This document shows positions 4,685 to 52,331 of a stretch of 64,000 nt of DNA, one piece after another. Source of the DNA: an uncultured delta proteobacterium (GTDB lineage: Bacteria; Desulfobacterota; Desulfomonilia; UBA1062). Position 1 is the first letter of the stretch. Every line of letters begins with the position of its first letter. The position numbers and the translations under genes were made by a program. The notes under the pieces are model-generated. The model saw nothing but the letters and a program-made list of their open reading frames with translations, ran no database searches and was not told the origin of the DNA. The DNA lies in NCBI GenBank assembly GCA_963785235.1, contig CAWAUM010000011.1, positions 233,724 through 297,723 of the forward strand. Direction: 5' to 3'.

Positions 4685-5952
4685 GAGATGTGTCTTTAGA
4701 CAACTTCATTGCATGGTTTGTTCGCATGAACTCAAAGGCCAGCTTTACCTTTGATGAAGGGGGGAGAGCATTTCATCCGGTTGCACCTTCTCATCCGGTT
4801 AATCTTTACATCCACATTCCATTTTGCGTGCAGCTCTGCCCGTACTGCTCTTTCCACCGTTATCAATTTGAAGAGGGTGTGGCCAGGGAATATTTCCTGG
4901 CATTGAGACAGGAGTTGCAGCTCTATGCGCAGAAGGGTTTTTGTTTCTCATCGGTCTATATAGGGGGCGGAACCCCAACGGTCCTGATGGATGAGCTTTT
5001 TTGTACCATCGGGCTCATCAATACCCTGTTCTCTCCGGCAGAGATTTCTGTAGAGACAAACCCGGACCGTCTTGATAAAGGGCTCCTGGCTTCTCTTGCC
5101 AATGCGGGGGTGGGAAGGGTATCGGTGGGCATCCAGAGCTTTTCTGACGAGATCTTGAAGGCTATCGGGCGATATGAAAAGTACGGCAGCGGAGATGAAC
5201 TGGCCCACAAGGTCTCAGAGGCAATGGGTATTGTGGAAACCTTGAATGTGGACATGATATACAACTTCCCCATTCAGGACTCCTCTATGCTCGAACATGA
5301 CCTCAGGACACTTCTGAAGATTCTCCCGGACCAGGTCACCTTCTATCCTCTTATGATATCCCAGGCCACCCGTGCTCAGATGGAAGGTATCATGGGGAAA
5401 GGCAGCCCTGAGACAGGGAGGTTTTTTTATGCCATGATTACATCAGAGCTTGAATCTGTGTATACGCCAAATTCAGCGTGGTGCTTTTCCCGGGGCGGTG
5501 CACCCATGATCGATGAATACGTGGTTGGCGGCCAGGAGTACGCAGGAGCCGGTAGCGGTGCCTTTGGTCTGGTGAATGGGGTAATGTATGCGAATACCTT
5601 TTCACTACCAGAGTATGTGAAATCGATAAAATCCTCTAAGCTGCCCATCAAACATGCCAAGACCTTCTCGCGCCATGAAATGGCCCGCTACTGCCTTCTC
5701 ATGAACCTTTTCGGACTCAAGCTTGATCTCGGATTATTCAGACAACGTTTCGGGCATTCCGTGTGGAGGCTGCTCGGGCCGGAGATACTCTTTTTTATTC
5801 TGGCCGGGGCTTTTCGCATAACACCCGGACAGATAAGCCTGACCAAGCGTGGGCGATACTACTGGGTCATCATGATGAGAGAATTCTTTACCGGTGTGGA
5901 CAATTTTCGTGATGCAAGCAGGGAGGCTGTTCTCCTTAAAGCAGGCGATTGA
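4681..5952 (+). CDS. Radical SAM protein, HemN/HemW (oxygen-independent coproporphyrinogen III oxidase-like) family
   Basis: 423 aa. LYIHIPFCVQLCPYCSF contains the CxxxCxxC radical-SAM cluster motif in the HemN-family context. GGGTPT motif follows. Confidence 0.75.
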   Translation: MRDVSLDNFIAWFVRMNSKASFTFDEGGRAFHPVAPSHPVNLYIHIPFCVQLCPYCSFHRYQFEEGVAREYFLALRQELQLYAQKGFCFSSVYIGGGTPTVLMDELFCTIGLINTLFSPAEISVETNPDRLDKGLLASLANAGVGRVSVGIQSFSDEILKAIGRYEKYGSGDELAHKVSEAMGIVETLNVDMIYNFPIQDSSMLEHDLRTLLKILPDQVTFYPLMISQATRAQMEGIMGKGSPETGRFFYAMITSELESVYTPNSAWCFSRGGAPMIDEYVVGGQEYAGAGSGAFGLVNGVMYANTFSLPEYVKSIKSSKLPIKHAKTFSRHEMARYCLLMNLFGLKLDLGLFRQRFGHSVWRLLGPEILFFILAGAFRITPGQISLTKRGRYYWVIMMREFFTGVDNFRDASREAVLLKAGD

Positions 5953-6005
5953 AGTGACCCCTGCATAGCCTTCCAGACATTTTGTTGCGAGAGGAAAAAA
6001 CCTTA

Positions 6006-6056
6006 CCCGTTCAAAACATGCATCTTGGTGAAACCAAGATGCATGTTTTGAACGGG
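6006..6056. terminator. Perfect 24-bp palindrome with 3-nt loop; probable bidirectional intrinsic terminator and copy 1 of a repeat family
   Basis: cccgttcaaaacatgcatcttggt (6006-6029), gaa loop, accaagatgcatgttttgaacggg (6033-6056). An A6 run lies upstream and a T-rich run (aatttttggttt) downstream, so a T/U tract follows the hairpin on either strand. Sits between the convergent hemN-like and dnaA genes. Confidence 0.65.
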
Positions 6057-6122
6057 CCAATTTTTGGTTTGCATCTCAAGGATTCTTTTGTTGTGAAATG
6101 TTCTGATGAGGGTAAAAAGCCC

Positions 6123-7469
6123 TCAAGCCGACTCACTGTCAAGCTTCTCAATGAGGAAATCAATCTCCCGCTTCACCTTGAGGTTCTGTGTGTACTGGGC
6201 CTCGATTGTCTCTAGGGAGTGGATGACAGAGGAGTGCTTCCGGGAGAAGGCCTCGCCAATGATCTGCAGCGGCTCCTCAGTATAACGTCTGCACAGGAAG
6301 ATAGCCACCTGGCGTGGATATACGATGTCCTTCTTCCGTGAAGGTGAGACAATCTTGTCTTTGGGTATGGAAAAATTTTTCGAGATGAAATCAAGAATAT
6401 ACGGGATGTTTATCCGCTGCTGTTTTTCCAGGGTCCCTTCAAGGAGTTCCCGGGCAAGCTCCAGGGTGATCGTACGCTTCATGAGAGAGCTCATGGCGGA
6501 AATGGTCATCACCGCACTTTCCAAGTCCCTGATGCTGGTATGGATGGTATTGCTCATGAACTCCACCACCTCATCGGGCATGCTTACCCCGTTCTTTTTT
6601 GCCTTGTGGCGGACAATCTTGGCCCTCGTTGTCTTATCAGGGCGCTTGATATCGATAACGAGCCCAGAAGATAAGCGTGACCTGAGTCCCTTGTCGATCT
6701 GGGGTATGGAAGTGGGCGGACGGAAGCCCGAGAGGATCACCTGCTTGCCCGCACTGATGAGGTCGTCAAGCACATGGCATAATTCAACCTGGGTCTTTTC
6801 CTTATTTTTGAAGAGATGGACATCATCAATAAAAAAGATATCCATGTTTTGGCTTCGGTATGAGCTTTTGAAGGAACTGAGAAAATTGTTTCTCACCGAG
6901 TGGACATAATCCTGCGTAAAGTCCCTGGCTGTAGTGTACCGCACACTGGTCCCATTGCGTAATGAAACGAGCTTGTTCCCTATGGCATGGGAGATGTGGC
7001 TCTTTCCAAGACCCACATCGGAATAAAAGTACAGAGGGTTATACCGGCGCAGATCCCCTTCGGAGACCGCAAGTGCCGCCTCATAGGCAAAGGCATTGCA
7101 TTTGCCCACTACAAACTCGTCAAAGGTGAATTGGGCATTGAGTCCGGATGAGGCCGGCGTTGGAAGATGTGAGGGCAGGCTCATCTGAATGGGAAGGCTA
7201 TCAGCCTGCGCCGGCCTTTGTGCCTGATGCTCGCTGAGAGGATTTACGCAGAACTCAACATCTGCCGGTCTGCCGAGATGAGACCTGACAGATGAGATGA
7301 TAAGATCTTTATAAACCCGGGATATATGCCTCTGGGCAAAGACATTGGGACAGCGGACAAAGACAGTGCCATCCTCCTCACAGATATCGATCTGGTCTAT
7401 GAGCGCCCTGTCCGATGCGGCATGCGACATTGAGAGAATAGATTCTTTAATAATTGCAAAGTGATTCAC
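6123..7469 (-). CDS. dnaA: Chromosomal replication initiator protein DnaA
   Basis: 448 aa. AAA+ Walker A GLGKSHISHAIG, Walker B FFIDDVH, and C-terminal DNA-binding domain IV (VYPRQVAIFLCRRYTEEPLQIIGEAFSRKHSSVIHS). Confidence 0.95.
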   Translation of the reverse strand: MNHFAIIKESILSMSHAASDRALIDQIDICEEDGTVFVRCPNVFAQRHISRVYKDLIISSVRSHLGRPADVEFCVNPLSEHQAQRPAQADSLPIQMSLPSHLPTPASSGLNAQFTFDEFVVGKCNAFAYEAALAVSEGDLRRYNPLYFYSDVGLGKSHISHAIGNKLVSLRNGTSVRYTTARDFTQDYVHSVRNNFLSSFKSSYRSQNMDIFFIDDVHLFKNKEKTQVELCHVLDDLISAGKQVILSGFRPPTSIPQIDKGLRSRLSSGLVIDIKRPDKTTRAKIVRHKAKKNGVSMPDEVVEFMSNTIHTSIRDLESAVMTISAMSSLMKRTITLELARELLEGTLEKQQRINIPYILDFISKNFSIPKDKIVSPSRKKDIVYPRQVAIFLCRRYTEEPLQIIGEAFSRKHSSVIHSLETIEAQYTQNLKVKREIDFLIEKLDSESA

Positions 7470-9162: not shown

Positions 9163-9520
9163 AGTTTATACCATACACTAAGAATGGTCGGGCAGTAAAG
9201 ACAAGGGAGTACAAACCCGGATTTTACAGGTGGACATGTCCATGAATAGGTTCTGTACTTCAGAAGCACCTTAAACAGTAAACCAAAAGTGTCCATGGAT
9301 TGCTTTTAAAATAGGCCGTTCATCCTTCACTTGCAGCTCAGGACAGAAATTAGCATTCCCAAACTGCATGAATGCACAAAATCCATGGGATACAAGGGGT
9401 TCTTCCTATGGAAGTATCCTTTTATATCAGAGAAAAGATCCCTGCATAAAAATAAAAGATCACACATGACATCAGAACGTGAGGTTTACTTTTAGTGCGC
9501 TATCGGGTTAAGCTGAGTTC

Positions 9521-10151: not shown

Positions 10152-11357
10152 ATGAGATTCGCTATTCTCACCTTAGGATGCAAGGTCAACCAATATGAAA
10201 GCCAGCGGATCAGGCAGGGGCTTGTCACAGCAGGCCACACGGAGCAGTCCTTTGCTGAACCCGGCGCCGAGTGTTACATCATCAATACCTGTACCATCAC
10301 CCATAAGGCCGATGCTGAAACGCGCAGGGTAATCCGCAAGGCACTGAGCCTAGGCGGTAGGGTAATAGTAACAGGCTGCCAGGCTGTTGTAGATGCCAAA
10401 GGCATCAGGGAGGTCTCCGAGGCAATTGAGATAGCCACGCCGGATCATCTCTCCGAGATACTCCAGGTAGACCTGCCATCCATTATTACAGGCTTCGGCG
10501 ATCACCATCGGGCCTTTGTGAAGGTCCAGCAAGGATGTGACAAGTATTGCACGTACTGTATCGTCCCTTTTGCCAGAGGAAGGCCTGTGAGCAGGCCTTG
10601 GCAGGAGGTTGTCACTGAGGTGAGAACCCTTTATGATAAGGGTTTTCATGAGGTGGTGCTTACCGGGATCAATATCGGTCTGTATGAGGGAGGGCTTTCA
10701 AGGCTTGTGGAAAGGGTGCTTTCCCACACATCCATCCCAAGGATCAGGGTAAGCTCCATGGAACCCTGGACCGTTGAAGACGGGCTCATATCCATAATCA
10801 AGGACAACTCCAGGCTCTGCAAACACCTTCACCTGCCGTTGCAGCACGGAAGCGATTCCATTCTTCGAGTCATGGGAAGGCCGTATACGGCCTCATATTT
10901 CAGGTCACTCATAGACCGAATCAGGAATGCGCTACCTGAGGCTGCAATCGGCCTGGACGTTATCGTGGGATTCCCAGGTGAGGATGACAAATCTTTTGAG
11001 GAATCCTATAGCCTTATCGAAGACCTCTATGTAACCTATTTCCATGTCTTCCCCTTCTCGCCAAGGCAAGGCACTGCCGCCGCTCTACTGCCCGGACGCC
11101 CGGATGAGGCGGCTGTGAAGAAGAGGTCTTCCCACCTCAGGGCTTTATCCAGAGAAAAGAGGCATGCCTTTGCCTGTTCACGACAGGGCATGGTTGAGGA
11201 AGTGCTTGTCACCGGGATTTGTGAGGGGCATTTTCATGGAGTGACCTCGAATTATCTTACCGTTCAGGCCCAGGGTAGTGTAACGCCAGGAAACATTGTG
11301 AGCGTTCTTCTCAAAAGTATGGAAGGGCAAACCCTTACAGGAGAGCTCGTTGGATAA
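10152..11357 (+). CDS. mtaB: tRNA methylthiotransferase, MiaB-like MtaB family (radical SAM)
   Basis: 401 aa. N-terminal UPF0004 domain (MRFAILTLGCKVNQYESQ, INTCTIT), radical-SAM CDKYCTYCIVP, and a TRAM-like C-terminus. Confidence 0.8.
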   Translation: MRFAILTLGCKVNQYESQRIRQGLVTAGHTEQSFAEPGAECYIINTCTITHKADAETRRVIRKALSLGGRVIVTGCQAVVDAKGIREVSEAIEIATPDHLSEILQVDLPSIITGFGDHHRAFVKVQQGCDKYCTYCIVPFARGRPVSRPWQEVVTEVRTLYDKGFHEVVLTGINIGLYEGGLSRLVERVLSHTSIPRIRVSSMEPWTVEDGLISIIKDNSRLCKHLHLPLQHGSDSILRVMGRPYTASYFRSLIDRIRNALPEAAIGLDVIVGFPGEDDKSFEESYSLIEDLYVTYFHVFPFSPRQGTAAALLPGRPDEAAVKKRSSHLRALSREKRHAFACSRQGMVEEVLVTGICEGHFHGVTSNYLTVQAQGSVTPGNIVSVLLKSMEGQTLTGELVG

Positions 11358-13066
11358 CAGCACCCTGGTAGATTCCTTGCTTGAGATGGCATTCGCGTTA
11401 GAGTTCCTGGAAGAGAATCCTTTCAAGGCAAAGGCATATGAGAAGGCTGCCAGATCTCTGTCCGGAATTGCCACACCCATGGAAGAACTCATCGATACAG
11501 GCGCAATAAGCCATATAGAGGGAGTCGGAAAGACCATCGCCGCAACGCTTACGGCCTGGGTGAAGGATCATGATTTTTCTGCATTGAAAGATCTGCAAGC
11601 CAGGCTGCCAGGTGGATTCGATGAATTGATAAAGGTGCCGGGGCTCGGGATGAAGAGGCTGAAGCTCCTGTCTAAGGAGCTTAACATCTCTACACTTGAT
11701 GAGCTTCTTGAGGCAATAAATACGAGCAGGCTTTCATCCGTTAAGGGTTTCTCCGATAAAAGCATTGCCAAGCTCAGAGGCTCTGTGCAGGCTATCCTCG
11801 ATTACCGGGGATGGTTTCTGCTTGATGCCGGGTGGGACTGGGCAGCAACTTATATATCACTCCTTAAGGATAGCGGACTTAATGTGCAGGTCAGTGGTGT
11901 CTGCCGCAGGTCCATGGAGATTATCTCTGCCATCGACCTCCTCGTAGAAGATGGCCCCGGTATGCATGACGCACTTGTTCAGTGCATTACCGGCATCCCT
12001 GATATGCAGCTTGTCCACGATGGGGCCGTACTTGTGGCGACATATCCCGGCAAGCCCCCTGCAAGGATCCACACCGTATCTCAGGCCTTGGTTGTACCTG
12101 CCCTGTTTATCACAACCGGCTCGGATGCCCATGTGGAAATGGTGAACAGGCACGGGGCGCTGCGATCCGTCCGGGTCAGCTATGAAGGGGTCTTTAAAGA
12201 CGAGGTGCTTGTGCCTATTCAAGCCGAATGGGAGATTTATGATCTGTTCGGCATGCACTACCTCCCACCCGAGGTAAGGGAGGGCAGGCCCATGGAGATG
12301 GACCTTGCCTTGAACTGCAGTGTGCCTGAGCTTATTGTGCAAGAAGACCTGAAAGGTATCATCCATGTCCATTCCACCTATAGCGACGGCAAGGCTACGT
12401 CTGGCCGACATGGTGCAGGGCGCTCATGAGAGAGGTTATTCCTGGATAGGCATCTCTGATCACAGCAAGAGCGCCTATTATGCAGGTGGATTGAGCGTGA
12501 AGGACCTGAAGCGGCAGTTCGAGGAAATCCATGAGCTCTCCCACATATTCCCTGATATGACGATCTTCAAGGGGATCGAATCCGATATCCTGCCCGACGG
12601 CTCACTGGATTATCCTCAGGCCGTGCTCAAACAATTCGATTTTGTCATTGCCAGCATCCATTCCCACATGGATATGGACAGATCGACCATGACAGAGCGT
12701 ATCATAAAGGCCATCCGCAATCCCTTTACCACCATACTTGGCCACCCCACAGGCAGGGTACTGCTTGCCCGCAGGCCCTATGAGGTGGATATGGCCGCAG
12801 TTCTGGCAGAGGCGGCAGGCCTTGGTGTCATAGTGGAGCTCAATGCCAACCCCTTAAGGCTCGACCTGGACTGGCGACTTATGCCGGACTTCACTGCAAA
12901 GGGAGGGCGTGTTGTCATAGCACCTGATGCCCATAGCGTTTCCGGGCTTGATGATATGCGTTATGGCCTGGCCATTGCCAGGAAAGGCCTGCTCTTAAGG
13001 GACTCCTGCATGAATGCACTCAGTGCCCGGGAAGCGAGGGAGGCGTTTAAAATCAGGTGGTCATAG
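11350..13066 (+). CDS. polX: Family X DNA polymerase with C-terminal PHP phosphoesterase domain (frame interrupted near 12390)
   Basis: N-terminal HhH repeats (IEGVGKTIAATL, VPGLGMKRLKLL). The PHP motif IHVHSTYSDGK sits at the end of track ORF 11350-12429. The PHP domain continues (GAHERGYSWIGISDHS) in ORF 12365-13066 in another frame. Confidence 0.8.
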
Positions 13067-13963
13067 AGTGCGCCGGTGTTTCTTACTGCTATGAGGTCGC
13101 GCTGGCGATGAATGGGCGCTTGTTGATATGGACCTGAAGATCGGCCAGGGTGAAAAGGTCGTCATCGCAGGGCCGGCAGGATCAGGAAAGACCACCCTGC
13201 TGCAACTGCTGGATGCACTGATCCTGCCCACCAAAGGAGACATCCTCTATGACGGTATCAGTGTGCGTACACTCGCCAGGAAGAAGGGCCTTACAATGGT
13301 GCGCAGGCGTATGGGGGTCCTATTCCAGTTCCCTGAAGACCAGTTTTTCCAGGAGACTGCTTATGACGAGCTTGTCTTTGCCATGAGGAATTTTTATCGA
13401 CCTCACAAGGGGAGTTGGAAGAAAGGGCATACCATGTCACTGCGGGTTTCGGCCTTGAGCTTGAGCGGCTCAAAAACACGTCGCCATTTCGTTTGAGCTC
13501 AGGAGAGAAGCGAAAACTCGCCTTAGCATCCGCCCTCATGATAGGCCCTGAGATATTGATGCTGGATGAACCCACAGCAGGCCTCGATGCCTCAGGCAGG
13601 CGCGAACTTACGGGTATGATATCTTCACTTGCGGATACAACCGTCATCATTGTCACCCACAACCAGGAGGATTTCCTCTCTCTGAATGATCGTTTTATCG
13701 GTATCACTTCAGGCAGAAAGGTCATTGATGTGAGGAAGGAGGAACTTCTTGATAAGATCGAGGCCATGGATGCCTCCGGTATCGATGCCCCGCTTGTACT
13801 CCTGGTCCAGCACTGGCTAAAACGCTCAGGCCTTGCATTGGATCATACCTTTTATGAAATGGATGAACTCATTGGCTTTCTCAGGGAAAAAAGTGCTCAT
13901 GAAAAGTGCTTTAAGGAAGCCAATCATCCTCTACTTGTCGTTACCCTTTTGTGTATTGACTAA
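13057..13963 (+). CDS. ABC transporter ATP-binding protein, EcfA/CbiO-like (two frame interruptions, near 13115 and 13450)
   Basis: GTG at 13057 gives VVIECAGVSYCYE, a typical ABC N-terminus. Walker A GPAGSGKTT, signature LSSGEKRKL and Walker B ILMLDEPTAGLD are spread over three frames (track ORFs 13128-13496 and 13415-13963). No permease or S-component gene is adjacent. Confidence 0.75.
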
Positions 13964-18350: not shown

Positions 18351-18566
18351 TGCCAGAAAAATAGTATACACAAGATCGAGAAGTACCTTTTAATCTGGAG
18401 GTTGCAGTTGAAAGTGCCCATGAGCACTCCATGCCCTTCGTGAGCGGCTTAAGCATAAGACTCATGGTGGTGATCTATAATATTTTAACGGATTAAGTTT
18501 TAACACATCCTGAATGCAAAATCCGGGTTATTGTTGTCTCCCGGAGACAACATACCCACAAAGCTC

Positions 18567-18637: not shown

Positions 18638-18904
18638 ATGGCTAACCATGCTTCAGCCCTGAAGAGACAGCGCCAGAGTGAAAAACGGCGTTCAAGGAAT
18701 AGAGGTCACAAGTCCGCTATTAATACGACCGTCAAGAAGGTTCTCACTTCTATAAGCGCCAAAGAATCTGATAAGGCACGTGAATTATCCCGTGAGGCAG
18801 TGGCCCTAATGGACAGCGCCGTTACCAAGGGTGTGCTGCACAGGAAGACCGCTTCCCGGAAGATCTCACGCCTCACCAAGATGGTGAACGCCCAGGTTTC
18901 TTAA
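18638..18904 (+). CDS. rpsT: 30S ribosomal protein S20
   Basis: 88 aa, MANHASALKRQRQSEKRRSRNRGHKS. Basic composition and size are characteristic. AGGAGG RBS upstream. Confidence 0.95.
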   Translation: MANHASALKRQRQSEKRRSRNRGHKSAINTTVKKVLTSISAKESDKARELSREAVALMDSAVTKGVLHRKTASRKISRLTKMVNAQVS

Positions 18905-18907
18905 GGC

Positions 18908-19905
18908 TTAAGGCCTGCCGGATATCCTTCCCTCATTCCTGGGGGAAAGCACAAGCCGCCCGATCAATTCGGTCAGGGCCGCATATACGTGTATCAGTGA
19001 GCTCGATTTTATCTGTTGTTCTATCCCGCGGACATCTTTAAGCAGAGTGGTAAGTTGCGCAATGCTCCATGAGGACTTGCGCCTCATGGCCTTGTCTGCC
19101 ACGAAGTCGTGGATCTTCATCTTCTTCCAGTCGTGTGCCGGAAAGCACTACATAGTGGGTGATGATCTGGTTTTCTATCCTGCTGATTATCTCCAGCTCG
19201 GCGACACCTGAGAGCTCAAGTTCATAGAGGCGTGACAGGGCATCCTTTTTCCGGTCGAACAGCGCATCAAGGAATGCAAATATTACGGGTTCATGCGTGC
19301 GCATGACTGCCTCATGAACATCCTTGCCGGTTATGGAGGGGCTCTGGTGGGCGTACAGGCACAGTTTCTGAATCTCGCTGTCCAGATACCACATGCTGCT
19401 TCCCCCGGTCATGTCGGCAAGCAGCACGGCAGCATCCCTGTCAATCTTCTTCCCATGCAGCGGCGTCCTTTCCATGATCCAGTTGATTCGCTCGCCCCTG
19501 TTCTTGATGGACTCGAAACGGACTATCTCAGCCTTGCCATCGAATTTCTTGATAAGCTTGTTCAGTTCCTTATCCGTCTTCTCAATCTCCATGAATCAGG
19601 ATGAAGGTTGTGATTTCGCATGGATTATCAAGGTAGAGTATCACCTGGTCCAGCTGCTTGGCAGAAAGCTTCTGGCCGTTTTTGATGATGACGACCCTTT
19701 GCTCAGACAGGAAGGGCATGGTGTTGCACAGGCTTATGATCTCATTCATACTCAGGTCTTCTTCAGCGTTGAAGGTAGCCCAGTTCATGGATATGTTCTC
19801 GCCCAGCTGTTGTTTTAATCTTACGAGCTCCTCCTCAACAAGGAACGTCTCCTGGGCTATGAAAACGGAATTGGAAAGCGGGCTTTGAGGTTTCTTTGTG
19901 CTCAT
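18908..19905 (-). CDS. holA: DNA polymerase III delta subunit HolA (two frame interruptions, near 19100 and 19590)
   Basis: Three consecutive fragments (19582-19905, 19038-19592, 18908-19120) read as one delta subunit: N-domain FLVEEELVRLKQQL..MPFLSEQRVVIIKN, then the middle and C-terminal helical domains. Conserved leuS-lptE-holA order. Confidence 0.75.
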
Positions 19906-22815: not shown

Positions 22816-22954
22816 ACGTTCCTCCACATGAATGGTGAGAGCACAATTAACACAACACCTCCCCTTCGTCCAGTCCCCGTTCCCGCGTATCGAACCGTAC
22901 ATTCCAAGATGATATACATCTTAAATATTTCTTCAGATACAAACCAAAAATTGG

Positions 22955-23005
22955 CCCGTTAAAATCATGAATCTCGGTGAAGCCGAGATTCATGATTTTA
23001 ACGGG
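22955..23005. repeat. Perfect 23-bp palindrome, copy 2 of the palindromic element family (terminator-like, in a divergent promoter region)
   Basis: cccgttaaaatcatgaatctcgg (22955-22977), tgaag, ccgagattcatgattttaacggg (22983-23005), followed by gtaaggTTTTTTT. The flanks ccaaaaattggcccgtt and aacgggtaaggtttttt are identical to copy 1 in inverted orientation. Confidence 0.8.
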
Positions 23006-23141
23006 TAAGGTTTTTTTATCCGAGACCCTTTCCGGAATTGTGCAAAGCTCTTAACTTTTGTAACTGCATTGGTGTCCCTGAGGTCTCTTCAGGCTCTTTG
23101 CGCTTGCATTTCATGGCCATATTGATATGTAAGGGGACACT

Positions 23142-25547
23142 ATGAGGTGGCTCAAATTCATACTTCTTATCATGGTGATCATCATTGTCCTGTGTGGAGC
23201 AGCAATCTATGTATTCGTACTCAGGGGGCTTCCTTCCCTTGAAGAGCTCAAAGGCGATGAGGTGACCAAGCTCAGCAAGGTTACCGCTGCCGACGGTACA
23301 CCCATCGGCTACTTCCCGCCCGAAGGAAGGGTTGTCATGAACGGGCACAACATCCCCATTACCCTCAAGCAGGCCATCATCGCTGCAGAGGATTCCACCT
23401 TTTATGATCATGTGGGACTTGAACCGCGCAGGATCATAAGTGCATTGCTCGCTGATATCAGGGCAAACTCCTATGTCCAGGGCGCATCTACCATAACCCA
23501 GCAGGTTGTCAGGTCGTATCTGCTCACCAATGAAAAGACCCTTGCCAGGAAGGTCAGGGAGATCGTTCTGGCGCTGCGCATCGAACAGGCCCTGACCAAA
23601 GAGCAGATTTTAAACCTGTACCTTGACCGCATCTACCTGGGAAGCGGGGCCTATGGAGTACAGGCGGCCTCCTTTCGTTATTTCGGCAAGGAGTGCAGAG
23701 AGCTCGAGCTCTCGGAGATGGCACTGCTTGCAGGGCTTGCCCCTGCGCCTACGAGATATTCTCCGCTGAATGATTTCACTGCTGCAAAAAGAAGGCAGTG
23801 GTATGTCCTTTCCCGCATGGTGTCCGAAGGTTACATTACCGGAGACGAGGCCCGTGAGGCATACAAGGACCCTTTGAGGATCATAGCCAAGGATGTGGCC
23901 CAATTTTCCGAATACCCCTATATCACCGACTATGTGAAGACGCTCGTGACCAAGCAGTTCGGCGAAGATATCTTCAACAAAGGGATCATTATCCGCACTT
24001 CGATAATACCTGAGCTCCAGCGCTCGGCAATGCTCGCTGTCCGCAAGGGGGTTATCGAGCTGGAGATGAGACAGGGCAAGTATCGTGGCCCCATAAAGGA
24101 TGTACCCCAAAGCGATGGTACGCTCAAGCCATTGGCCCTGCCGACAAGGATCGCATCTTTGCATTGCAGTCAAACCAGCTTGCATGGAAAGGATACGAAC
24201 CCTATGAGCTCTATTGGGCAGAGGTGACAAGACTGGATCCATTAACGGTAAAACTCGGCACCAGAAGCCTGGAACTCGGCCCGGGCAGCTACGCCTGGAT
24301 CAACCCCAAGGGGAATTGGAATCCCGGCAGCGTGCTCAAGCCCGGCGATCTCATAGCAGCTCTGCTCTACGCCCGGCGGTTTTGTGATCTCGCAACACCC
24401 TCAGGTTCAGGGGGTGCTTGTAGCCTTTGATTTGGAAAAGGCCGGCATCCTTGCCATGGTTGGAGGGGTCGACTATGCCCAGAGCCAGTTCAACAGGGCC
24501 ATATACGCAAGGAGGCAGAGCGGTTCGGCAATAAAACCCTTCATCTATGCGGCAGCTATCGACAAGGGGCTGACCCCGGCCTCCATCATCTTCGACTCGC
24601 CGGTGACCTATAATGCCGGGGCGGATGAGGAAATGTGGCAACCTAAAAACTACGAAAACCGCTTCTATGGTGCAACCACATTGAGGACCGGCCTTGTCCT
24701 GTCAAGAAACGTGGTTACCATAAAGATTTTAAACCAGATCGGCCTTGATTTTGCCATCTCATATATCAGACGGTTCGACATGCAATCGGATCTGCCTCGG
24801 AACCTTTCCCTGGCCCTGGGTTCAGGTTCGGTAACCCCTATTAACCTCTTTAAGGGGTATGCCGAGCTGGCCATCTATGGTCAGAAGTTTGATCCCCATA
24901 TGATCGAGAGCATTGTCCAAAGCGGAAAGGGGACTATCTTTCGTGCCCCTGCAGGCCCGGCAGCACTTACTTCTCCTGTTGTACCTGCGGTAACCGCCGG
25001 AACCGAAGGCATTACGGCAGATACGGCCTCTTTGACCAATGTCTTGCAAGATGGTATTGATGCCATCACGTCTATACCGGACCGGGGAGTTATCTCATCT
25101 CAGACGGCCTTCATTATCACGAACATCCTCAAGGACGTGGTGCAGGCGGGAACAGGTTGGCGTGCAAAGGCGCTTATGAGGCCTATTGCGGGAAAGACAG
25201 GTACCAGCGATGACAGCAAGGATACCTGGTTTATCGGATACTCCCCTGATGTCTTATGCGGTGTATGGGTCGGCTATGACAGCATGACTTCGCTTGGCGC
25301 GAATGAGACAGGCGGTAAAACCGCATGCCCAATATTTGTCGACTTCATGACAACAGCGTTGCGTGACAGGCCTGTGCGCGACTTCAGGGTCCCTGCGGGT
25401 GTGGTATTCGCCAGGGTCAACTCCAATACGGGCAAAGGGGCTGGTGAGGATTCTCTGGAATCACGTTTTGAGGTCTTTAAGCAAGGCAGCGTACCTGCAG
25501 CCGAGAAGGCCGTTAATGATGATCAATTGTTAAAGGAGGTCTTCTGA
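23142..25547 (+). CDS. mrcA: Class A penicillin-binding protein (PBP1A: transglycosylase/transpeptidase), two frame interruptions near 24200 and 24400
   Basis: N-terminal TM helix. GT51 motifs EDSTFYDH, GASTITQQ, RKVRE. Transpeptidase motifs SGSAIKP (SxxK), SRN, KTGTS. Split over track ORFs 23142-24227, 24164-24430 and 24384-25547. Confidence 0.85.
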
Positions 25548-36676: not shown

Positions 36677-37393
36677 ATGGCTTCTCCTTGTCAGACACTG
36701 GCCTTGTACGCTATAGCTCACATCATGCAAAGGGTATTCTGCAAACGCGAGGTGACCCATGGTCTGGACAGGGGTCCTGATGCCGTATCCGCAAGGCTCG
36801 CTGAGCTCCTGCCGGGCAGCCGTATTGTCTGCCTGGCGCAGATTCATTCGGACAGGATCGTAAGGGCCGAGGATATCCCCCCCGGGGTGTTCCCGGAGGC
36901 GGACGGGGTCATTTCTCTGGACCCGTCCCTGGTGCTGTGCATCCGCACTGCCGACTGCGTACCGCTGCTCATGTGGGCGGAAAATACGCCAATAATCGCA
37001 GCGGTTCATGCCGGATGGAAAGGACTCGCGAAGAAGATTGTCTCCAAAACAATCGATCTCATGCGCGCACTAGGCGCGCATGAGATCCATGTAAGCATGG
37101 GGCCATCCATCGGGCCATGCTGCTATGCCGTGGGGACAGAGGTCATTGAGGCACTTCAGACCGGGCCTGACCGACACTTTGGTGGAAGGCTTTATGTGGA
37201 TCTGCACCGCATCTCGGCGCTGCAGGCCAAAAACGCCGGCGTATCGCCTGATATGATCCATCAGGTGCAGGCCTGCACCTACTGCAACAGTGACTCGTTT
37301 TTTTCCTACCGGAGAGAAGGGGAGCATACCGGCAGGAACATATCGCTCATCGGAGGACTCTCATGCTCGTTGCCGGGCTTACAGGCTCTATAG
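36677..37393 (+). CDS. pgeF: YfiH/PgeF family (laccase-domain, peptidoglycan editing factor) protein
   Basis: 238 aa. QIHSDRIV, TADCVPLL and AVHAGWKG motifs, and the C-terminal CTYC..FFSYRR. Confidence 0.8.
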   Translation: MASPCQTLALYAIAHIMQRVFCKREVTHGLDRGPDAVSARLAELLPGSRIVCLAQIHSDRIVRAEDIPPGVFPEADGVISLDPSLVLCIRTADCVPLLMWAENTPIIAAVHAGWKGLAKKIVSKTIDLMRALGAHEIHVSMGPSIGPCCYAVGTEVIEALQTGPDRHFGGRLYVDLHRISALQAKNAGVSPDMIHQVQACTYCNSDSFFSYRREGEHTGRNISLIGGLSCSLPGLQAL

Positions 37394-39863: not shown

Positions 39864-39891
39864 TAAATCTCGGCTTGTAAATCTCGGCTTG
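39864..39891. repeat. Exact 14-nt tandem duplication (taaatctcggcttg x2)
   Basis: Units at 39864-39877 and 39878-39891, directly 5' of the 39902-39950 palindrome. Confidence 0.8.
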
Positions 39892-39901
39892 AAAAACCTG
39901 T

Positions 39902-39950
39902 CCTCTACAGAATGATCATCTCGCCATGCGAGATGATCATTCTGTAGAGG
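39902..39950. terminator. Perfect 23-bp palindrome with 3-nt loop; probable terminator between convergent proC and the LOG-family gene
   Basis: cctctacagaatgatcatctcgc (39902-39924), cat, gcgagatgatcattctgtagagg (39928-39950). On the reverse strand the hairpin is followed by acaggTTTTTc. On the forward strand no T-run follows. Confidence 0.6.
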
Positions 39951-39998
39951 CTAAATAAAGCTTACTTGCAGCAGACAACAGGGTATCTAAGGTTATTA

Positions 39999-40722: not shown

Positions 40723-41583
40723 GTGTACGACCTCCACATCCATACATCACATTCTTCAGACGGGCAATACGGGCCTGGCGAAATCCTGCGTATGGCTAAG
40801 GCCTGCAATCTGAAAGGCCTGGCCTTTACCGATCATATGGACACCTCTGCCGTGGCTGAAGGTATACGCCTGGCCCCTGCATACGGACTGAACTTTATTT
40901 CCGGTGTGGAGCTCTCAACCGTACTCCATGACCGGGAATATCACCTCCTGCTCTATGGGTTCCACCCGGATAATAGGATAATAAAAGCCTTTCTTGATCA
41001 GCACTGCCGGGCCATCTGGGATAAGGCCCTTGAGGTACTCAATGTATTCAATCAGATGGGTTTTGATATCAGGAAGGACGATATCCCGTCATGGGGCCTC
41101 TCGGTGCCCACCGGGGTTACCTTTCTCAATGCGCTGATCAAGAGGAACCAAGGGGACAAGAGGCTTCAGGAATACCTCTGTGGGCACAAGGCGTCCTCTC
41201 CATATCTGAACTTCTATAAGGATTATGCCCTGACTGATATCGGAACCATGGTACGCTCCGCCTTGCCGGATCTCATAGAGACCATGCGGCTGCTTAAGGA
41301 CTCCGGCGTGTTCATCCTCGCCCATCCCGGCAATACAAGCAATACTATTTTGAAGGAATTGAAGGGTGAAGGTCTTTGCGGGATCGAGGTCTACAGCACT
41401 CATCACACAGCCCGGATAATGGAGCATCTAGTGGAAGAGGCCAGGTCGCTGAATCTTATGGTAAGTTCGGGATCCGATTTCCACGGAGAGTTTATCAAAC
41501 CGGGCATCGGTCTTGGTGATTCATCCGGGGAGCCTGATGATCAGCTCATCACTATGATTTTAGGCATGACCGCAAGAGGATAA
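40723..41583 (+). CDS. PHP-domain metal-dependent phosphoesterase
   Basis: GTG start. MYDLHIHTSHSSDG and AFTDHMD motifs, with later SGSDFHG. Confidence 0.75.
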   Translation: MYDLHIHTSHSSDGQYGPGEILRMAKACNLKGLAFTDHMDTSAVAEGIRLAPAYGLNFISGVELSTVLHDREYHLLLYGFHPDNRIIKAFLDQHCRAIWDKALEVLNVFNQMGFDIRKDDIPSWGLSVPTGVTFLNALIKRNQGDKRLQEYLCGHKASSPYLNFYKDYALTDIGTMVRSALPDLIETMRLLKDSGVFILAHPGNTSNTILKELKGEGLCGIEVYSTHHTARIMEHLVEEARSLNLMVSSGSDFHGEFIKPGIGLGDSSGEPDDQLITMILGMTARG

Positions 41584-41660
41584 TGAATAGGACCGCTTAT
41601 GCAATTCTGATGGTCTTAAGCAGAGTACTCATAGTGAACATGGAATTGTCTTTTCATAGG

Positions 41661-41746
41661 TCCGTTCAAAACCTGCATCTTGCAGCTTTGAAGGTCCGAC
41701 AGAATAAGCATAGAGAAAAGGCTGCAAGATGCAGGTTTTGAACGGA
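41661..41746. terminator. Perfect 26-bp palindrome with 34-nt loop; copy 3 of the palindromic element family
   Basis: tccgttcaaaacctgcatcttgcagc (41661-41686) pairs with gctgcaagatgcaggttttgaacgga (41721-41746), followed by taaggTTTTTa. Lies between the convergent PHP gene and the secretin gene. Confidence 0.6.
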
Positions 41747-41822
41747 TAAGGTTTTTACACCTCGTAACCGCAAAATCTGTCTTAAAGGCCTTGGAATGGT
41801 CGCAGCCATTCCCTACCATTCC

Positions 41823-49466: not shown

Positions 49467-50060
49467 CTACATTCTCCAGTAGACAGTCTTAACCGTTGTT
49501 GCCGTATAAACAGTGTTGGCCCTCATGGTCCCTGTGTTGTAAACCGCGTCATCATATTTTCTGTCCATTTCCTGGGCAACCTCATAGGGGATCTGGGTGT
49601 ACACGATACAGTTCGCGTTCAGCGGTGTTGCAGACCCTGGGGGAGTAGCCAAATACTGGATGTAGGCCTGGCCTCCAAAGGGGTTTGTAGGGTAATCGTT
49701 AGCCGCTCCGGTATAGCCCCCGTTGATGATCTGTGCCAAGACGAGGTCCTGGAAGAGAACAGAGCGCTCGGTATTCGCATTGATCTGGCCGTTTCCTGCA
49801 GTCGCAGCAGGATCTGTATGGCCCTGTGTCGGGATATTAGCTACAGGTGCATCACCCGGATAATAGTTATACCTGTCATAATAGGTATAGAAGGCCGCGG
49901 TGAGTGAATCCTTCTGGTTGACTAACTTCTTGACCTTTGCATTCTGAATGAGGGCCTCGCCCTTGAGTACGCCTGTAATGAGCAAGCCGATGATCACCAA
50001 CACCAGTGCAAGTTCAACAAGGGTAAAGCCGCCTTTTTGTCGATTTCTAAACCGTTCCAT
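49467..50060 (-). CDS. Prepilin-type major pilin candidate
   Basis: 197 aa. MERFRNRQKG/FTLVELALVLVIIGLLITG (short leader, Glu+5). It is its own transcription-unit-like gene, followed by a long hairpin and a 189-nt gap before the ATPase gene. Confidence 0.8.
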   Translation of the reverse strand: MERFRNRQKGGFTLVELALVLVIIGLLITGVLKGEALIQNAKVKKLVNQKDSLTAAFYTYYDRYNYYPGDAPVANIPTQGHTDPAATAGNGQINANTERSVLFQDLVLAQIINGGYTGAANDYPTNPFGGQAYIQYLATPPGSATPLNANCIVYTQIPYEVAQEMDRKYDDAVYNTGTMRANTVYTATTVKTVYWRM

Positions 50061-50180
50061 GCATACACCTCCTGATAGAGTAGCGCCTAGCTGTAAGCTC
50101 TAGTAAGCACCCAATCGGTATAATCCACATTCTTCTTTAGTAATTGCTCGATATGGCTTGAATTATGGAAAGGGAAGAGC

Positions 50181-52331
50181 TTATTCTTTATGCGTAATGA
50201 TTCGTCTCCCAAGTGTCAGGGGGGATATGCCCGGTATAGTGGAGATGTCCTTGTTATATACAGCTCCTGTTGAAGATATGAATTTCATGACACCATTGTC
50301 CAGATCAATGGAAGGACCAAAAGCGCTGCCCATAAACATGGCCTCTGACTTTGTTTGCCTTCCAGTGAGGGAATCATACTCTTGAAACATGGATATGCCG
50401 GTGTCAATACCTCCGCAGGGAGAATCTTCTTTCCAGGTGCTTAAGAATAACCTGTTATCCATGATTGTCATGCCTGAGGGTGAGCCTCCTTCAAGGGAGA
50501 CAGACCAAACGATATTCTCTTTGGTATAGCATTCAAGGCGTTTATTACTTGCCACGATGAGGTGAAGCTCCTTTCGCCAATGGAACGGACGTATCTCCAT
50601 AATGGGATTATTGGCGGTGGTGTTTATGATGCCCAAGAGTTCGAGCCTGTTGTTAAAAAGATAGACAAGTCCGTCGGATGTCCCTGCAAAAACCCCAGCT
50701 GTGCACGGATCATAGCGCACGACATTAATGGTATGATTAACTTCGAATTGAGCCGTCCCTATGCCGTTTCCAAGATTGTACGCATATATCGTGGAGCCGT
50801 TACTGATATAGGCCATGGATTCGGATGCGTCGATAAAAGACCCTTTATGCTGCCAGATTATCTGAGGTCCCTGGCCTATACACGAAATGATGCCCAGTCT
50901 GTTCGGGCCTGTTATGACCCGTTCGCCTCTCAGTCGCACCTCGCCCCCTATACCTGTCATGAGCCACGTCAGGCTGCCTTCGGGCATGGTGACATTGAGG
51001 AGCTGATCGCGGGATGTAGTGCAGTACAGGTCTGTCTGTGTGGCTGCAAGGTCATGGGCAAGGCCATTCAGGGAATAACCCGGGCAGGATACCAGGCTTA
51101 AAGGACTGACGACACTCGGTCTGTAAAACCGGCATTTGTCGGTTTTGAGCCATGGCGGATCGAGCCGTGCACGGAGGTTTTTCAGTATCATGTCCTGGTC
51201 GTTACGAACCACTATAGGCTGGGTAACCAGCATCTGTTCAGGAACGAGTATCTCCCGTGCCGGCATATACTGACCCCCGCCCTTTATAGCAACACTTCTC
51301 AGATACGCCGTATCAGGGCCGATAATGTGGACATTGATGCCCAGAGACTTCGCATAGGATGAGACATCATCAAGGCAGTGAGAGCCTTCCCCTTCAAAGG
51401 CAGCATCTTTGGCGTTTCCATCATGATCAAAGTCCTTCAGCCAGGAGGGGAGATGGCCGTCGTTTATGGGAACACCTGCAGTAACCAGAATGATATGTTT
51501 GCCGGATACACACTGCGAAGGGAACAGGGTTGTTGCATTATAAAGTGCCTCCGATAAAGGGGCTGAGCCCGATGCCGGATGAACGCCGTCAAGGCCCTGA
51601 AGGATCTGCTGCCATTCAATGGTAAAAGTTTGGATCAGGCCTTGTGACGTGCTCATAAGGGACACTTCACACAGATCCAGTGATTCAAAGAGCGACTTTG
51701 CGTAGGAGAAGGACTTTGTCCACACTGACATTGCACCTGTCAGGCTGCCGAGTGCCGGGGCCCTTTGATATGAGTTGCCCCAGCTTCCCTTGAAATAGGT
51801 GCCCTCAGCGTTCGTGTAGGTGTCTTCAAACTCACAGATATCACTGATGTGGGTTATGCCGCCTGTGGCCCATTTTGAGTAGAGCGCATCGTCTAAGAAA
51901 TCTTGGCCGGATGATGTAATCGTGCTTAATGAATCATCGATGATAATTATGATATGTGGTCTCTGGGCAATCCGGGTGGTGCCTTGTGGGATATCCGCAC
52001 TCTGTTCCCTTAGTGCCACACACCAGGAATATGACTGCATGGCGCTGGTTGCATGTTCGGTGAGCCTGGTGGAAAAACATATATGGTCCCACCCTTCAGG
52101 CGCCACAAGCAGTTTATGGGTTGCGGATGGCATAGTCCCGTTTTGGGGAGCAAAGAGCTGATCTTTAATAATACGATAGAAGGCGTTGCTCGATTTCATA
52201 TGGTACAAGGTTATGGAAGCGGACGCCATGGTAAGCCCCAGGATCACGGTAAGGAGTAGGAGTACAAAGGCAAGGATAAAACCTTGCTCATTGGATGGGG
52301 GATGATAAAGAGAGTTCCTTCTCTGTTCCAT
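50181..52331 (-). CDS. PilY1-like candidate tip adhesin: PilX_N-type anchor + vWA domain + beta-propeller
   Basis: 716 aa. N-terminus EQGFILAFVLLLLTVILGL (PilX_N-like hydrophobic helix). vWA beta-1 with DxSxS (HIIIIIDDSLS), HIILVTAG, INVHIIGP. The C-terminal roughly 300 aa holds PQQ-like propeller repeats (STIYAYNLGNG, GLVYLFNN). Confidence 0.6.
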   Translation of the reverse strand: MEQRRNSLYHPPSNEQGFILAFVLLLLTVILGLTMASASITLYHMKSSNAFYRIIKDQLFAPQNGTMPSATHKLLVAPEGWDHICFSTRLTEHATSAMQSYSWCVALREQSADIPQGTTRIAQRPHIIIIIDDSLSTITSSGQDFLDDALYSKWATGGITHISDICEFEDTYTNAEGTYFKGSWGNSYQRAPALGSLTGAMSVWTKSFSYAKSLFESLDLCEVSLMSTSQGLIQTFTIEWQQILQGLDGVHPASGSAPLSEALYNATTLFPSQCVSGKHIILVTAGVPINDGHLPSWLKDFDHDGNAKDAAFEGEGSHCLDDVSSYAKSLGINVHIIGPDTAYLRSVAIKGGGQYMPAREILVPEQMLVTQPIVVRNDQDMILKNLRARLDPPWLKTDKCRFYRPSVVSPLSLVSCPGYSLNGLAHDLAATQTDLYCTTSRDQLLNVTMPEGSLTWLMTGIGGEVRLRGERVITGPNRLGIISCIGQGPQIIWQHKGSFIDASESMAYISNGSTIYAYNLGNGIGTAQFEVNHTINVVRYDPCTAGVFAGTSDGLVYLFNNRLELLGIINTTANNPIMEIRPFHWRKELHLIVASNKRLECYTKENIVWSVSLEGGSPSGMTIMDNRLFLSTWKEDSPCGGIDTGISMFQEYDSLTGRQTKSEAMFMGSAFGPSIDLDNGVMKFISSTGAVYNKDISTIPGISPLTLGRRIITHKE

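Follow-up and report, generated by a model that had tools for sequence, protein, structure and literature searches.

Neisseria Correia elements are non-coding MITEs of ∼100–250 bp that carry terminal inverted repeats (TIRs) and short A/T-rich target duplications and occupy intergenic positions. The hairpin of Correia-type MITEs arises from pairing of these terminal repeats, and their copies are near-identical in sequence. Integron attC sites are recognized by their RYYYAAC…GTTRRRY core sites and extrahelical bases and occur in cassette arrays together with an integrase. REPINs combine conserved ends with an interior whose sole requirement is hairpin formation and in which compensatory changes are frequent (PMC3116915). 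Compensatory changes made in one step, as well as loop inversions, are documented products of template switching (PMC8794818).

Here we describe a family of repeats built around long palindromes, which was detected in a 64 kb window (the whole stretch of DNA that was analysed) and in related contigs, and which represents a new case within a known class of elements, not a new type of system. Like the REPINs of Pseudomonas and enterobacteria, its members are short multicopy extragenic repeats with conserved ends, two-sided compensation and some clusters; unlike REPINs, they have arms that are perfect over 23–36 bp and devoid of REP mini-hairpins, asymmetric flanks, no linked RAYT gene, and a long form with TIRs and a direct repeat. 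With Correia elements the family shares its size, lack of coding sequence, TIRs, short A/T-rich target duplications, filled/empty polymorphism between relatives, intergenic sites and potential RNA hairpins that could affect neighbouring transcripts, but its main feature is a long internal perfect palindrome that differs between copies. Quasi-palindrome correction accounts for perfect stems, for inverted loops and for changes that reach both sides in one step, all of which are present here; it is, however, a mutational mechanism and not an element family, and would here have acted repeatedly on a repeat family with unusually long stems. Integron attC sites were rejected as a match, as the base of the palindromes here reads RYYYGTT…AACRRRY, with the triplet order reversed, the stems are perfect and lack bulges, and the neighbours are housekeeping genes.

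Results

Palindromes in the window

The window is an origin-proximal stretch of chromosome containing dnaA (6123–7469), leuS, pil genes and an rnpA–yidC–mnmE block, and the closest named homologues of its DnaA and PHP proteins belong to Desulfomonilia/'Deltaproteobacteria' MAGs. The three inverted repeats reported in the initial annotation were all recovered, both by reading the sequence and by an inverted-repeat scan, as intergenic palindromes with perfect arms of 24, 23 and 26 bp (copies 1–3, Table 1); those of copy 3 extend to 29 bp at 97% and enclose 28–34 nt. Exact matches located in the window confirmed that copies 1 and 2 lie in opposite orientation and have both 17-nt flanks in common, AACGGGTAAGGTTTTTT at 5995–6011 (−) and 23000–23016 (+), and CCAAAAATTGGCCCGTT at 6051–6067 (−) and 22944–22960 (+). 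The former flank recurs with two mismatches at 41741–41757 (+); its matches have a chance expectation of 0.12, and three were reached in 0 of 100 shuffles. In an ungapped alignment the arms of copies 1 and 2 differed at positions 7, 11, 16 and 21, each difference being mirrored in the opposite arm, as had been claimed.

The inverted-repeat scan further revealed a fourth perfect palindrome of 23 bp (39902–39950), which is also a member of the family. The extended unit of copy 1 occupies essentially the entire spacer between dnaA and the radical-SAM gene, and shows homology at its right end to the terminal arm of type B described below (..CGCAACAAAATGTCTGG). Among copies 1–3, placement between convergent genes is limited to copies 1 and 3.

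Table 1. Members of the repeat family located in the window, with strand, structure and neighbouring genes.
Feature	Coordinates	Strand	Structure and basis	Gene context
Type A core, copy 1	5995..6067	−	CCAAAAATTGG, 24-bp-arm perfect palindrome 6006–6056 (3-nt loop, GAA/TTC), then TAAGGTTTTTT	HemN-like radical-SAM gene / dnaA, convergent
Extended type A unit, copy 1	5946..6110	−	∼150–165 nt (nhmmer profile match and flank alignment)	
Type A core, copy 2	22944..23016	+	palindrome 22955–23005, 23-bp perfect arms, 5-nt loop TGAAG; extended similarity 22894–23061	divergent starts of leuS (−, 22902) and a transglycosylase gene (+, 23142)
Type B element, copy 3	41537..41809	+	∼250-bp MITE-like unit, central palindrome 41661–41746, arms 26–29 bp, interior ∼30 nt; right flank TAAGGTTTTTAC, terminal arm ..CGTAACCGCAAAATCTGTC	PHP phosphoesterase gene / secretin gene, convergent
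Diverged member	39890..39962	−	perfect 23-bp-arm palindrome 39902–39950, flanks AAAAACCTGT / CTAAATAAAG	proC / LOG-family gene, convergent
Type B copy with central palindrome deleted	18375..18545	+	both outer parts kept, 11 nt apart; nhmmer matches to profile positions 5–67 and 166–257, plus alignment	
Degenerate type B copy	9208..9367	+	most of left arm lost (profile search, alignment)	divergent spacer upstream of glycogen synthase gene

Some further features of the window were recorded during the comparison with related contigs and loci, which are designated by L-numbers (L001 etc.). A 14-nt tandem duplication (two copies of TAAATCTCGGCTTG, ∼39866–39893) abuts the left side of the 39902 palindrome and is identical in L067 and absent in L068. 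A near-perfect palindrome with 17-bp arms (ATCGATCTCATGCGCGC / GCGCGCATGAGATCCAT) lies at 37052–37090 within ORF 36677–37393, which is of the Cu-oxidase_4 family according to the annotation of the syntenic L067; it is conserved in L067 (6333–6365) apart from one change and showed no relation to the repeat family by profile search. A PolX-like gene is split into ORFs 11350–12429 and 12365–13066, and an ABC ATPase gene into ORFs 13128–13496 and 13415–13963. In L060 and L061 each of them is one gene, of 571 and 280 aa, respectively, whereas the ENA contigs L001 and L002 show the same splits, which are probably long-read assembly frameshift errors or pseudogenes. Finally, ∼400 nt (24709–25107) inside ORF 24384–25547 had no blastn match in the ∼95% identical MAG contig L008, which has ∼100 nt at this place, representing either an indel or a hypervariable patch.

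Extent of the family and its two subtypes

Scanning of a genome collection with the pattern CCGTT…AACGGNTAAGGTTTTT without flanks, by which type B copies are missed, returned ∼45 chance matches lacking a stem and six true palindromes, all of them in two sister MAGs. All six bear the left flank AAAAATTGGC, which had not been part of the search pattern. The two element-bearing GTDB-representative MAGs carry the NCBI label 'uncultured Bacteriovoracaceae', and one is ∼95% identical to the window over the leuS region. A flank-based metagenome scan yielded four further copies, a palindrome finder together with nhmmer profiles applied to related loci yielded more members, including the two damaged copies in the window, and a profile search of a sister species detected five copies within 21 kb. 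The family thus comprises at least six members in the 64 kb window and ∼20 more in related metagenome contigs, and the additional copies that had been predicted exist in sister MAGs, metagenome contigs and a sister species. Viral contigs scanned for the flank pattern gave 0 matches, which leaves a phage origin unsupported.

Two subtypes were distinguished. The type A core of ∼73 nt consists of AAAAATTGG, CCCGTT[M]AAA…, a perfect stem of 23–36 bp, …TTT[K]AACGGG and TAAGGTTTTT, and is commonly nested in a unit of ∼150 nt that has one clear terminal arm and a weak opposite end. Type B is a unit of ∼250 bp with a central palindrome (arms of 26–31 bp, loop of ∼30 nt), a tail of ∼110 nt and TIRs of ∼20 bp, CCSGATTTTGCRTTTAAG… and …GCAAAATCYGGG. 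The two types have one terminal arm and, in diverged form, the core flanks in common, and all subtypes retain CATCTYG at the apex and CCGTTMAAA at the base. The terminal arm is borne directly by the type A cores of L038, L030 and L068-9181, while in L019 and L031 the core stands alone and the outer MITE arms are missing; in L056 and L059 two elements lie side by side. The asymmetric flanks of type A (9–11 nt) and its stem base do not vary among 13 copies, which represent several loci and species and include L019, whose 36-bp arms are otherwise unrelated to those of copy 1.

Unit sizes range from ∼73 to ∼270 nt, and no ORF is consistently present. A possible ORF of ∼30 codons (MSxMLKA...W.H.NAKSG) was seen in the type B tail, e.g. 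at 18375–18470 (−) of the window and 18851–18960 (−) of L001, and is in frame in four of six copies; interruptions in copy 3 and L056_36 make a coding role improbable.

Besides the sites in Table 1, the element in L031 lies between convergent genes, those in L041 and L060-8142 and the L056 pair (in the spacer between hrcA and argS) between divergent genes, and those in L001, L019 and L030 between tandem genes. The neighbours are housekeeping genes, e.g. trpA, argS/hrcA, rmuC, asparagine synthase and a sigma-54 regulator. Upstream of argS, where elements of both types are adjacent (L056 4448–4698, L059 41–202), the relative orientation of the type B element is reversed between L056 and L059 and its spacing is 111 and 20 nt, respectively, which indicates nested or repeated insertion, or rearrangement, at one spot.

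Filled and empty sites

A type B insertion of 232 bp was found in L068 (19534–19767) at a position where the window (∼50060–50181) is empty, the flanks being ∼90% identical. CTTATT(C)/CTTAAT(C) borders this insertion on both sides, and the copy L056_4448 is flanked by (G)ATTAA(C). On the basis of the filled/empty comparison a TTAA target duplication for type B, considered before, was replaced by an A/T-rich repeat of ∼6–7 bp. Clear target duplications were obtained for these two type B copies only, and none was definable for type A. The junction between coaE and a TPR gene is a second such site, filled in L068 and empty in the window and L067. At the dnaA–rSAM spacer the element is restricted to the species of the window; in relatives, whose DnaA proteins are 89, 88, 78 and 78% identical, this spacer measures 156, 19, 36 and 73 nt, respectively, and contains no palindrome. 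Downstream of pilQ, a type B copy is present in this lineage, in contrast to ordinary GC-rich, A/T-flanked terminator hairpins in relatives. In one of these relatives, L061, a solo sequence resembling the terminal repeat (CCGGATTTTGCGTTTGAAT, 19120–19138) stands beside the ordinary terminator hairpin and may be the remnant of a lost copy, as the element is otherwise absent there.

Copies were also lost or damaged by deletion. At the locus upstream of glycogen synthase, where the window has a degenerate copy, strain L001 shows a different deletion, by which the whole palindrome was lost, and species L060 has a perfect palindrome with 29-bp arms. Altogether three independent deletion derivatives document the instability of the palindromes, and such palindrome-associated deletions fit with a structure-prone sequence.

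The family shows features of MITEs, namely short (<∼500 bp), non-coding, dispersed copies, TIRs (in type B), and a target duplication with filled and empty sites. The identical flanks of 15–17 nt, the TIRs and the filled/empty sites together point to common descent and mobility and not to convergence. The view of the initial annotation that these are dispersed REP/MITE-like repeats, rather than independently drifting terminators, is supported. As read from the sequence, the type B TIRs and direct repeat are the signature expected of classical (DDE-type) transposition. The ∼400 kb of related sequence yielded neither an autonomous element nor a transposase with ends matching those of the family, no paired terminal repeats enclosing a transposase gene were present in the related loci searched, and no transposase, Y1/HUH enzymes included, adjoins any copy with annotated neighbour genes; the Pfam view of the window ORFs covered the best 25 of 80 families and so leaves room for a transposase inside the window.

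Symmetry of the arms

Alignment of 11 type A copies gave 23 stem pairs, of which 14 were invariant, seven showed two-sided changes and none a one-sided change, and 98.4% of all cells were paired. Among the 27 stem pairs of five type B copies, 16 were invariant and eight were changed on both sides, again with no one-sided change and with 97.8% of cells paired. Thus all 15 varying stem pairs of these 16 copies were altered on both sides, and the leftover pairs (two in type A and three in type B) deviate by isolated mismatches alone. When the partner column was slid by 1–3 positions, pairing fell to 24–47%. Many of the two-sided changes are transversions (C-G to A-T, A-T to T-A and C-G to G-C), for which no wobble intermediate is possible.

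Relative to the asymmetric flanks, loops occur either way round. In type A the loop reads TTTCA in copy 1, L003 and L030 versus TGAAA in L058, and TGAAG in copy 2, L008, L031, L056 and L059 versus CTTCA in L041, and the 32-nt loop of type B is inverted in L056_36 compared with the four other copies.

Orthologous sites were compared at two distances. At strain level, one mirrored pair distinguishes the window from L003 at the copy 1 site, and likewise L056_4448 from L059_41. One uncompensated T>C change separates copy 2 from its L008 ortholog, and one unmirrored transition separates copy 3 from its L067 ortholog. Single-arm transitions were observed in three cases in all (L008, L030 and L067), each as a singleton in one strain, producing a C·A mismatch on the strand that reads from AAAAATTGG to TAAGG and what would be a G·U pair on the opposite strand. 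At species level, copy 3 and its counterpart in L068 differ at four of 26 arm positions, all mirrored, and the 39902 palindrome and L068-9181 differ at eight of 23 arm positions, all mirrored, both palindromes being perfect; at this L068 site the type-A-like palindrome is attached to the terminal arm of the family. The arms diverge about as fast as the adjoining non-coding sequence, and the stems are still perfect.

Uncompensated mismatches in relatives, which the initial annotation had named as evidence against its reading, do occur, as three strain variants have one each and an arm has decayed in one copy. Such states appear to be transient or dead and do not overturn the claim; the strain- and species-level comparisons together indicate that single-arm mutations arise and then resolve to the perfect state.

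The surroundings of copy 1 were also compared with L003. Between 5953–6122 of the window and 2031–2184 of L003, the adjacent dnaA and rSAM genes are 98.4% and 97.1% identical, respectively, whereas the outer ∼100 nt of the spacer are ∼75–85% identical and the mirrored pair is the sole difference in the 73-nt core. A conserved core amid a diverged spacer points to gene conversion by other members of the family or to a hotspot of mutation at this place.

Discussion

We consider it probable that the palindromes are the cores of a lineage-specific, non-autonomous family of mobile repeats whose arms are kept complementary by copying from arm to arm at the DNA level. According to this proposal, the long form, type B (∼250 bp), would behave as a MITE that has TIRs of ∼20 bp and is flanked by a short A/T-rich direct repeat, type A would be its compact relative, and both would be moved by a trans-acting transposase encoded elsewhere. 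During replication or repair the palindrome would fold back and one arm would serve as template for the other, i.e. quasi-palindrome template switching, equivalent to gene conversion within the palindrome. A mutation in a single arm would then be either erased or copied into the opposite arm, and the same templated process could occasionally invert the loop.

The notion that one arm templates the other, already raised in the initial annotation, gains strength from the loop inversions, the exclusively two-sided changes including transversions, and the orthologous sites that differ at eight of 23 positions and yet are perfect. If one arm is copied from the other, changes on both sides, transversions and inverted loops are explained jointly, and these are exactly the kinds of change documented for replication template switching (PMC8794818), whereas purifying selection is a poor explanation, as stems of 23–36 bp would functionally tolerate a mismatch. 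Template switching as the cause of the symmetry is nevertheless inferred from patterns of change. Selection on hairpins in transcripts of both strands would likewise forbid G-U pairs, so that selection and templated copying are not fully separable by sequence. The combined pattern supports template switching at the DNA level over slow compensation at the RNA level.

The cores could instead be REPIN-like and move as single-stranded hairpins by means of a RAYT/IS200-type HUH tyrosine transposase encoded once elsewhere, with the flanks and the stem base as recognition and cleavage sites. Their architecture fits the conserved ends, the less conserved hairpin interior and the frequent compensatory changes of REPINs (PMC3116915), and conserved inverted ends with a compensating hairpin interior were indeed found. 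Although the stems vary, neither the flanks AAAAATTGG / TAAGGTTTTT nor the base CCCGTTMAAA change from locus to locus or from one species to the next; there are also core-only copies (L019 and L031), and clusters of paired elements occur in L056 and L059. We nevertheless regard this origin as unlikely. No Y1/HUH transposase gene, which in RAYT systems is usually flanked by REPINs, is near the copies with annotated neighbours, and the arms do not each carry a short imperfect REP hairpin, nor was a GTAG-like tetranucleotide identified. In other words, the short imperfect palindrome with a 5′ tetranucleotide that marks each end of a REP arrangement is missing, the sole weak self-complementarity outside the stem being that of CCAAAAATTGG in the left flank. 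Moreover, TIRs and a flanking direct repeat as in type B are typical of DDE transposition and are not made by IS200/IS605-type enzymes.

It is still less likely that the elements are primarily bidirectional intrinsic terminators selected by the host, in which the flanking A- and T-runs would be the terminator tracts and the hairpin would be required in transcripts of both strands. As in such terminators, the hairpin stands between an A-run and a T-run, and several copies (1, 3, the 39902 palindrome and L031) are located between convergent genes; at the site downstream of pilQ, type B takes the place of the ordinary terminator hairpins of relatives. The hairpins predicted by RNA folding are very stable on both strands (−44 to −58 kcal/mol, with z from about −7 to about −11); an outer AAACC/GGUUU helix, formed on one strand, draws the U-run to the stem base, and the two-strand constraint mentioned above would equally rule out G-U pairs. 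On the other hand, the stem is AT-rich and two to three times longer than in bidirectional terminators, far beyond what termination needs, so that selection against one mismatch should be negligible, and yet the stems are perfect. The T-run begins 4–5 nt past the stem, and no copy has the canonical combination of a GC-rich stem and a U-tract within 0–2 nt. A consensus terminator scan called none of the copies, and the terminator-like sites it found in the window were not above chance. Many copies lie in promoter-side spacers, with copy 2, L041, the L056 pair and L060-8142 between divergently transcribed genes. The shared flanks of 15–17 nt, the TIRs and the filled/empty sites show common descent, and the loop inversions are left unaccounted for. 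As a general function, the bidirectional termination that had been suggested for copy 1 is therefore weak, with copy 2 and at least three others between divergent genes, the T-runs set off from the stem and no call by the consensus scan. As a by-product, a hairpin with a T-run at gene ends may attenuate or stabilize transcripts, to judge from sequence.

Returning to mobility with arm-to-arm copying, the contrast between the invariant type A flanks and the varying stems and decayed outer arms suggests a sequence-specific constraint beyond selfish spread and neutral template switching, which is most plausibly recognition by the mobilizing enzyme. For the core, a hairpin-specific mechanism, REPIN/RAYT-like or other, is on this account still a rival. 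A further, improbable reading would be that the ∼73-nt core is mobile by itself and is transposed as a folded-back single strand, with a putative enzyme recognizing AAAAATTGG / TAAGGTTTTT and the stem base, and with the second arm rebuilt from the first at each transposition. If true, one mechanism would account for both the invariant flanks and the freely varying yet perfect stems, and it would represent hairpin-templated transposition distinct from REPIN/RAYT systems and TIR-based MITEs.

That the hairpins are small structured RNA genes, or binding sites or cruciforms for a DNA-binding protein, with a regulatory role is very improbable: although the CATCTYG apex and the CCGTTMAAA base are conserved across subtypes and two type A copies lie in the same orientation just upstream of the aminoacyl-tRNA synthetase genes leuS and argS, there were zero Rfam matches at the gathering threshold (E ≤ 1 gave generic miRNA-precursor hairpins on both strands), loops are unconserved and flip in orientation, copies are gained, lost and deleted among close relatives, and their position relative to genes is inconsistent. 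With 0 matches at the gathering threshold and the generic hairpins far below it, membership in a known Rfam RNA family was rejected, and no tRNA or tmRNA was present. The partition site parS was rejected on sequence, the loop GTTTCAC being a half-site only, and so were the resemblances to CIRCE and the LexA box.

Apart from the evolution of its hairpins, the family is an ordinary lineage-specific selfish repeat. Its ∼20 copies, however, document the evolution of long hairpins in nature with unusual clarity, as orthologs and paralogs can be compared and as single-arm intermediates, transversions mirrored in both arms and inverted loops all occur. The family is a good illustration of how template switching may maintain hairpins. 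Covariation in such elements is no proof of a functional RNA. For the uncultured Desulfomonilia-like lineage that carries them, the repeats are likely breakpoints of assemblies and likely hotspots of recombination and deletion.
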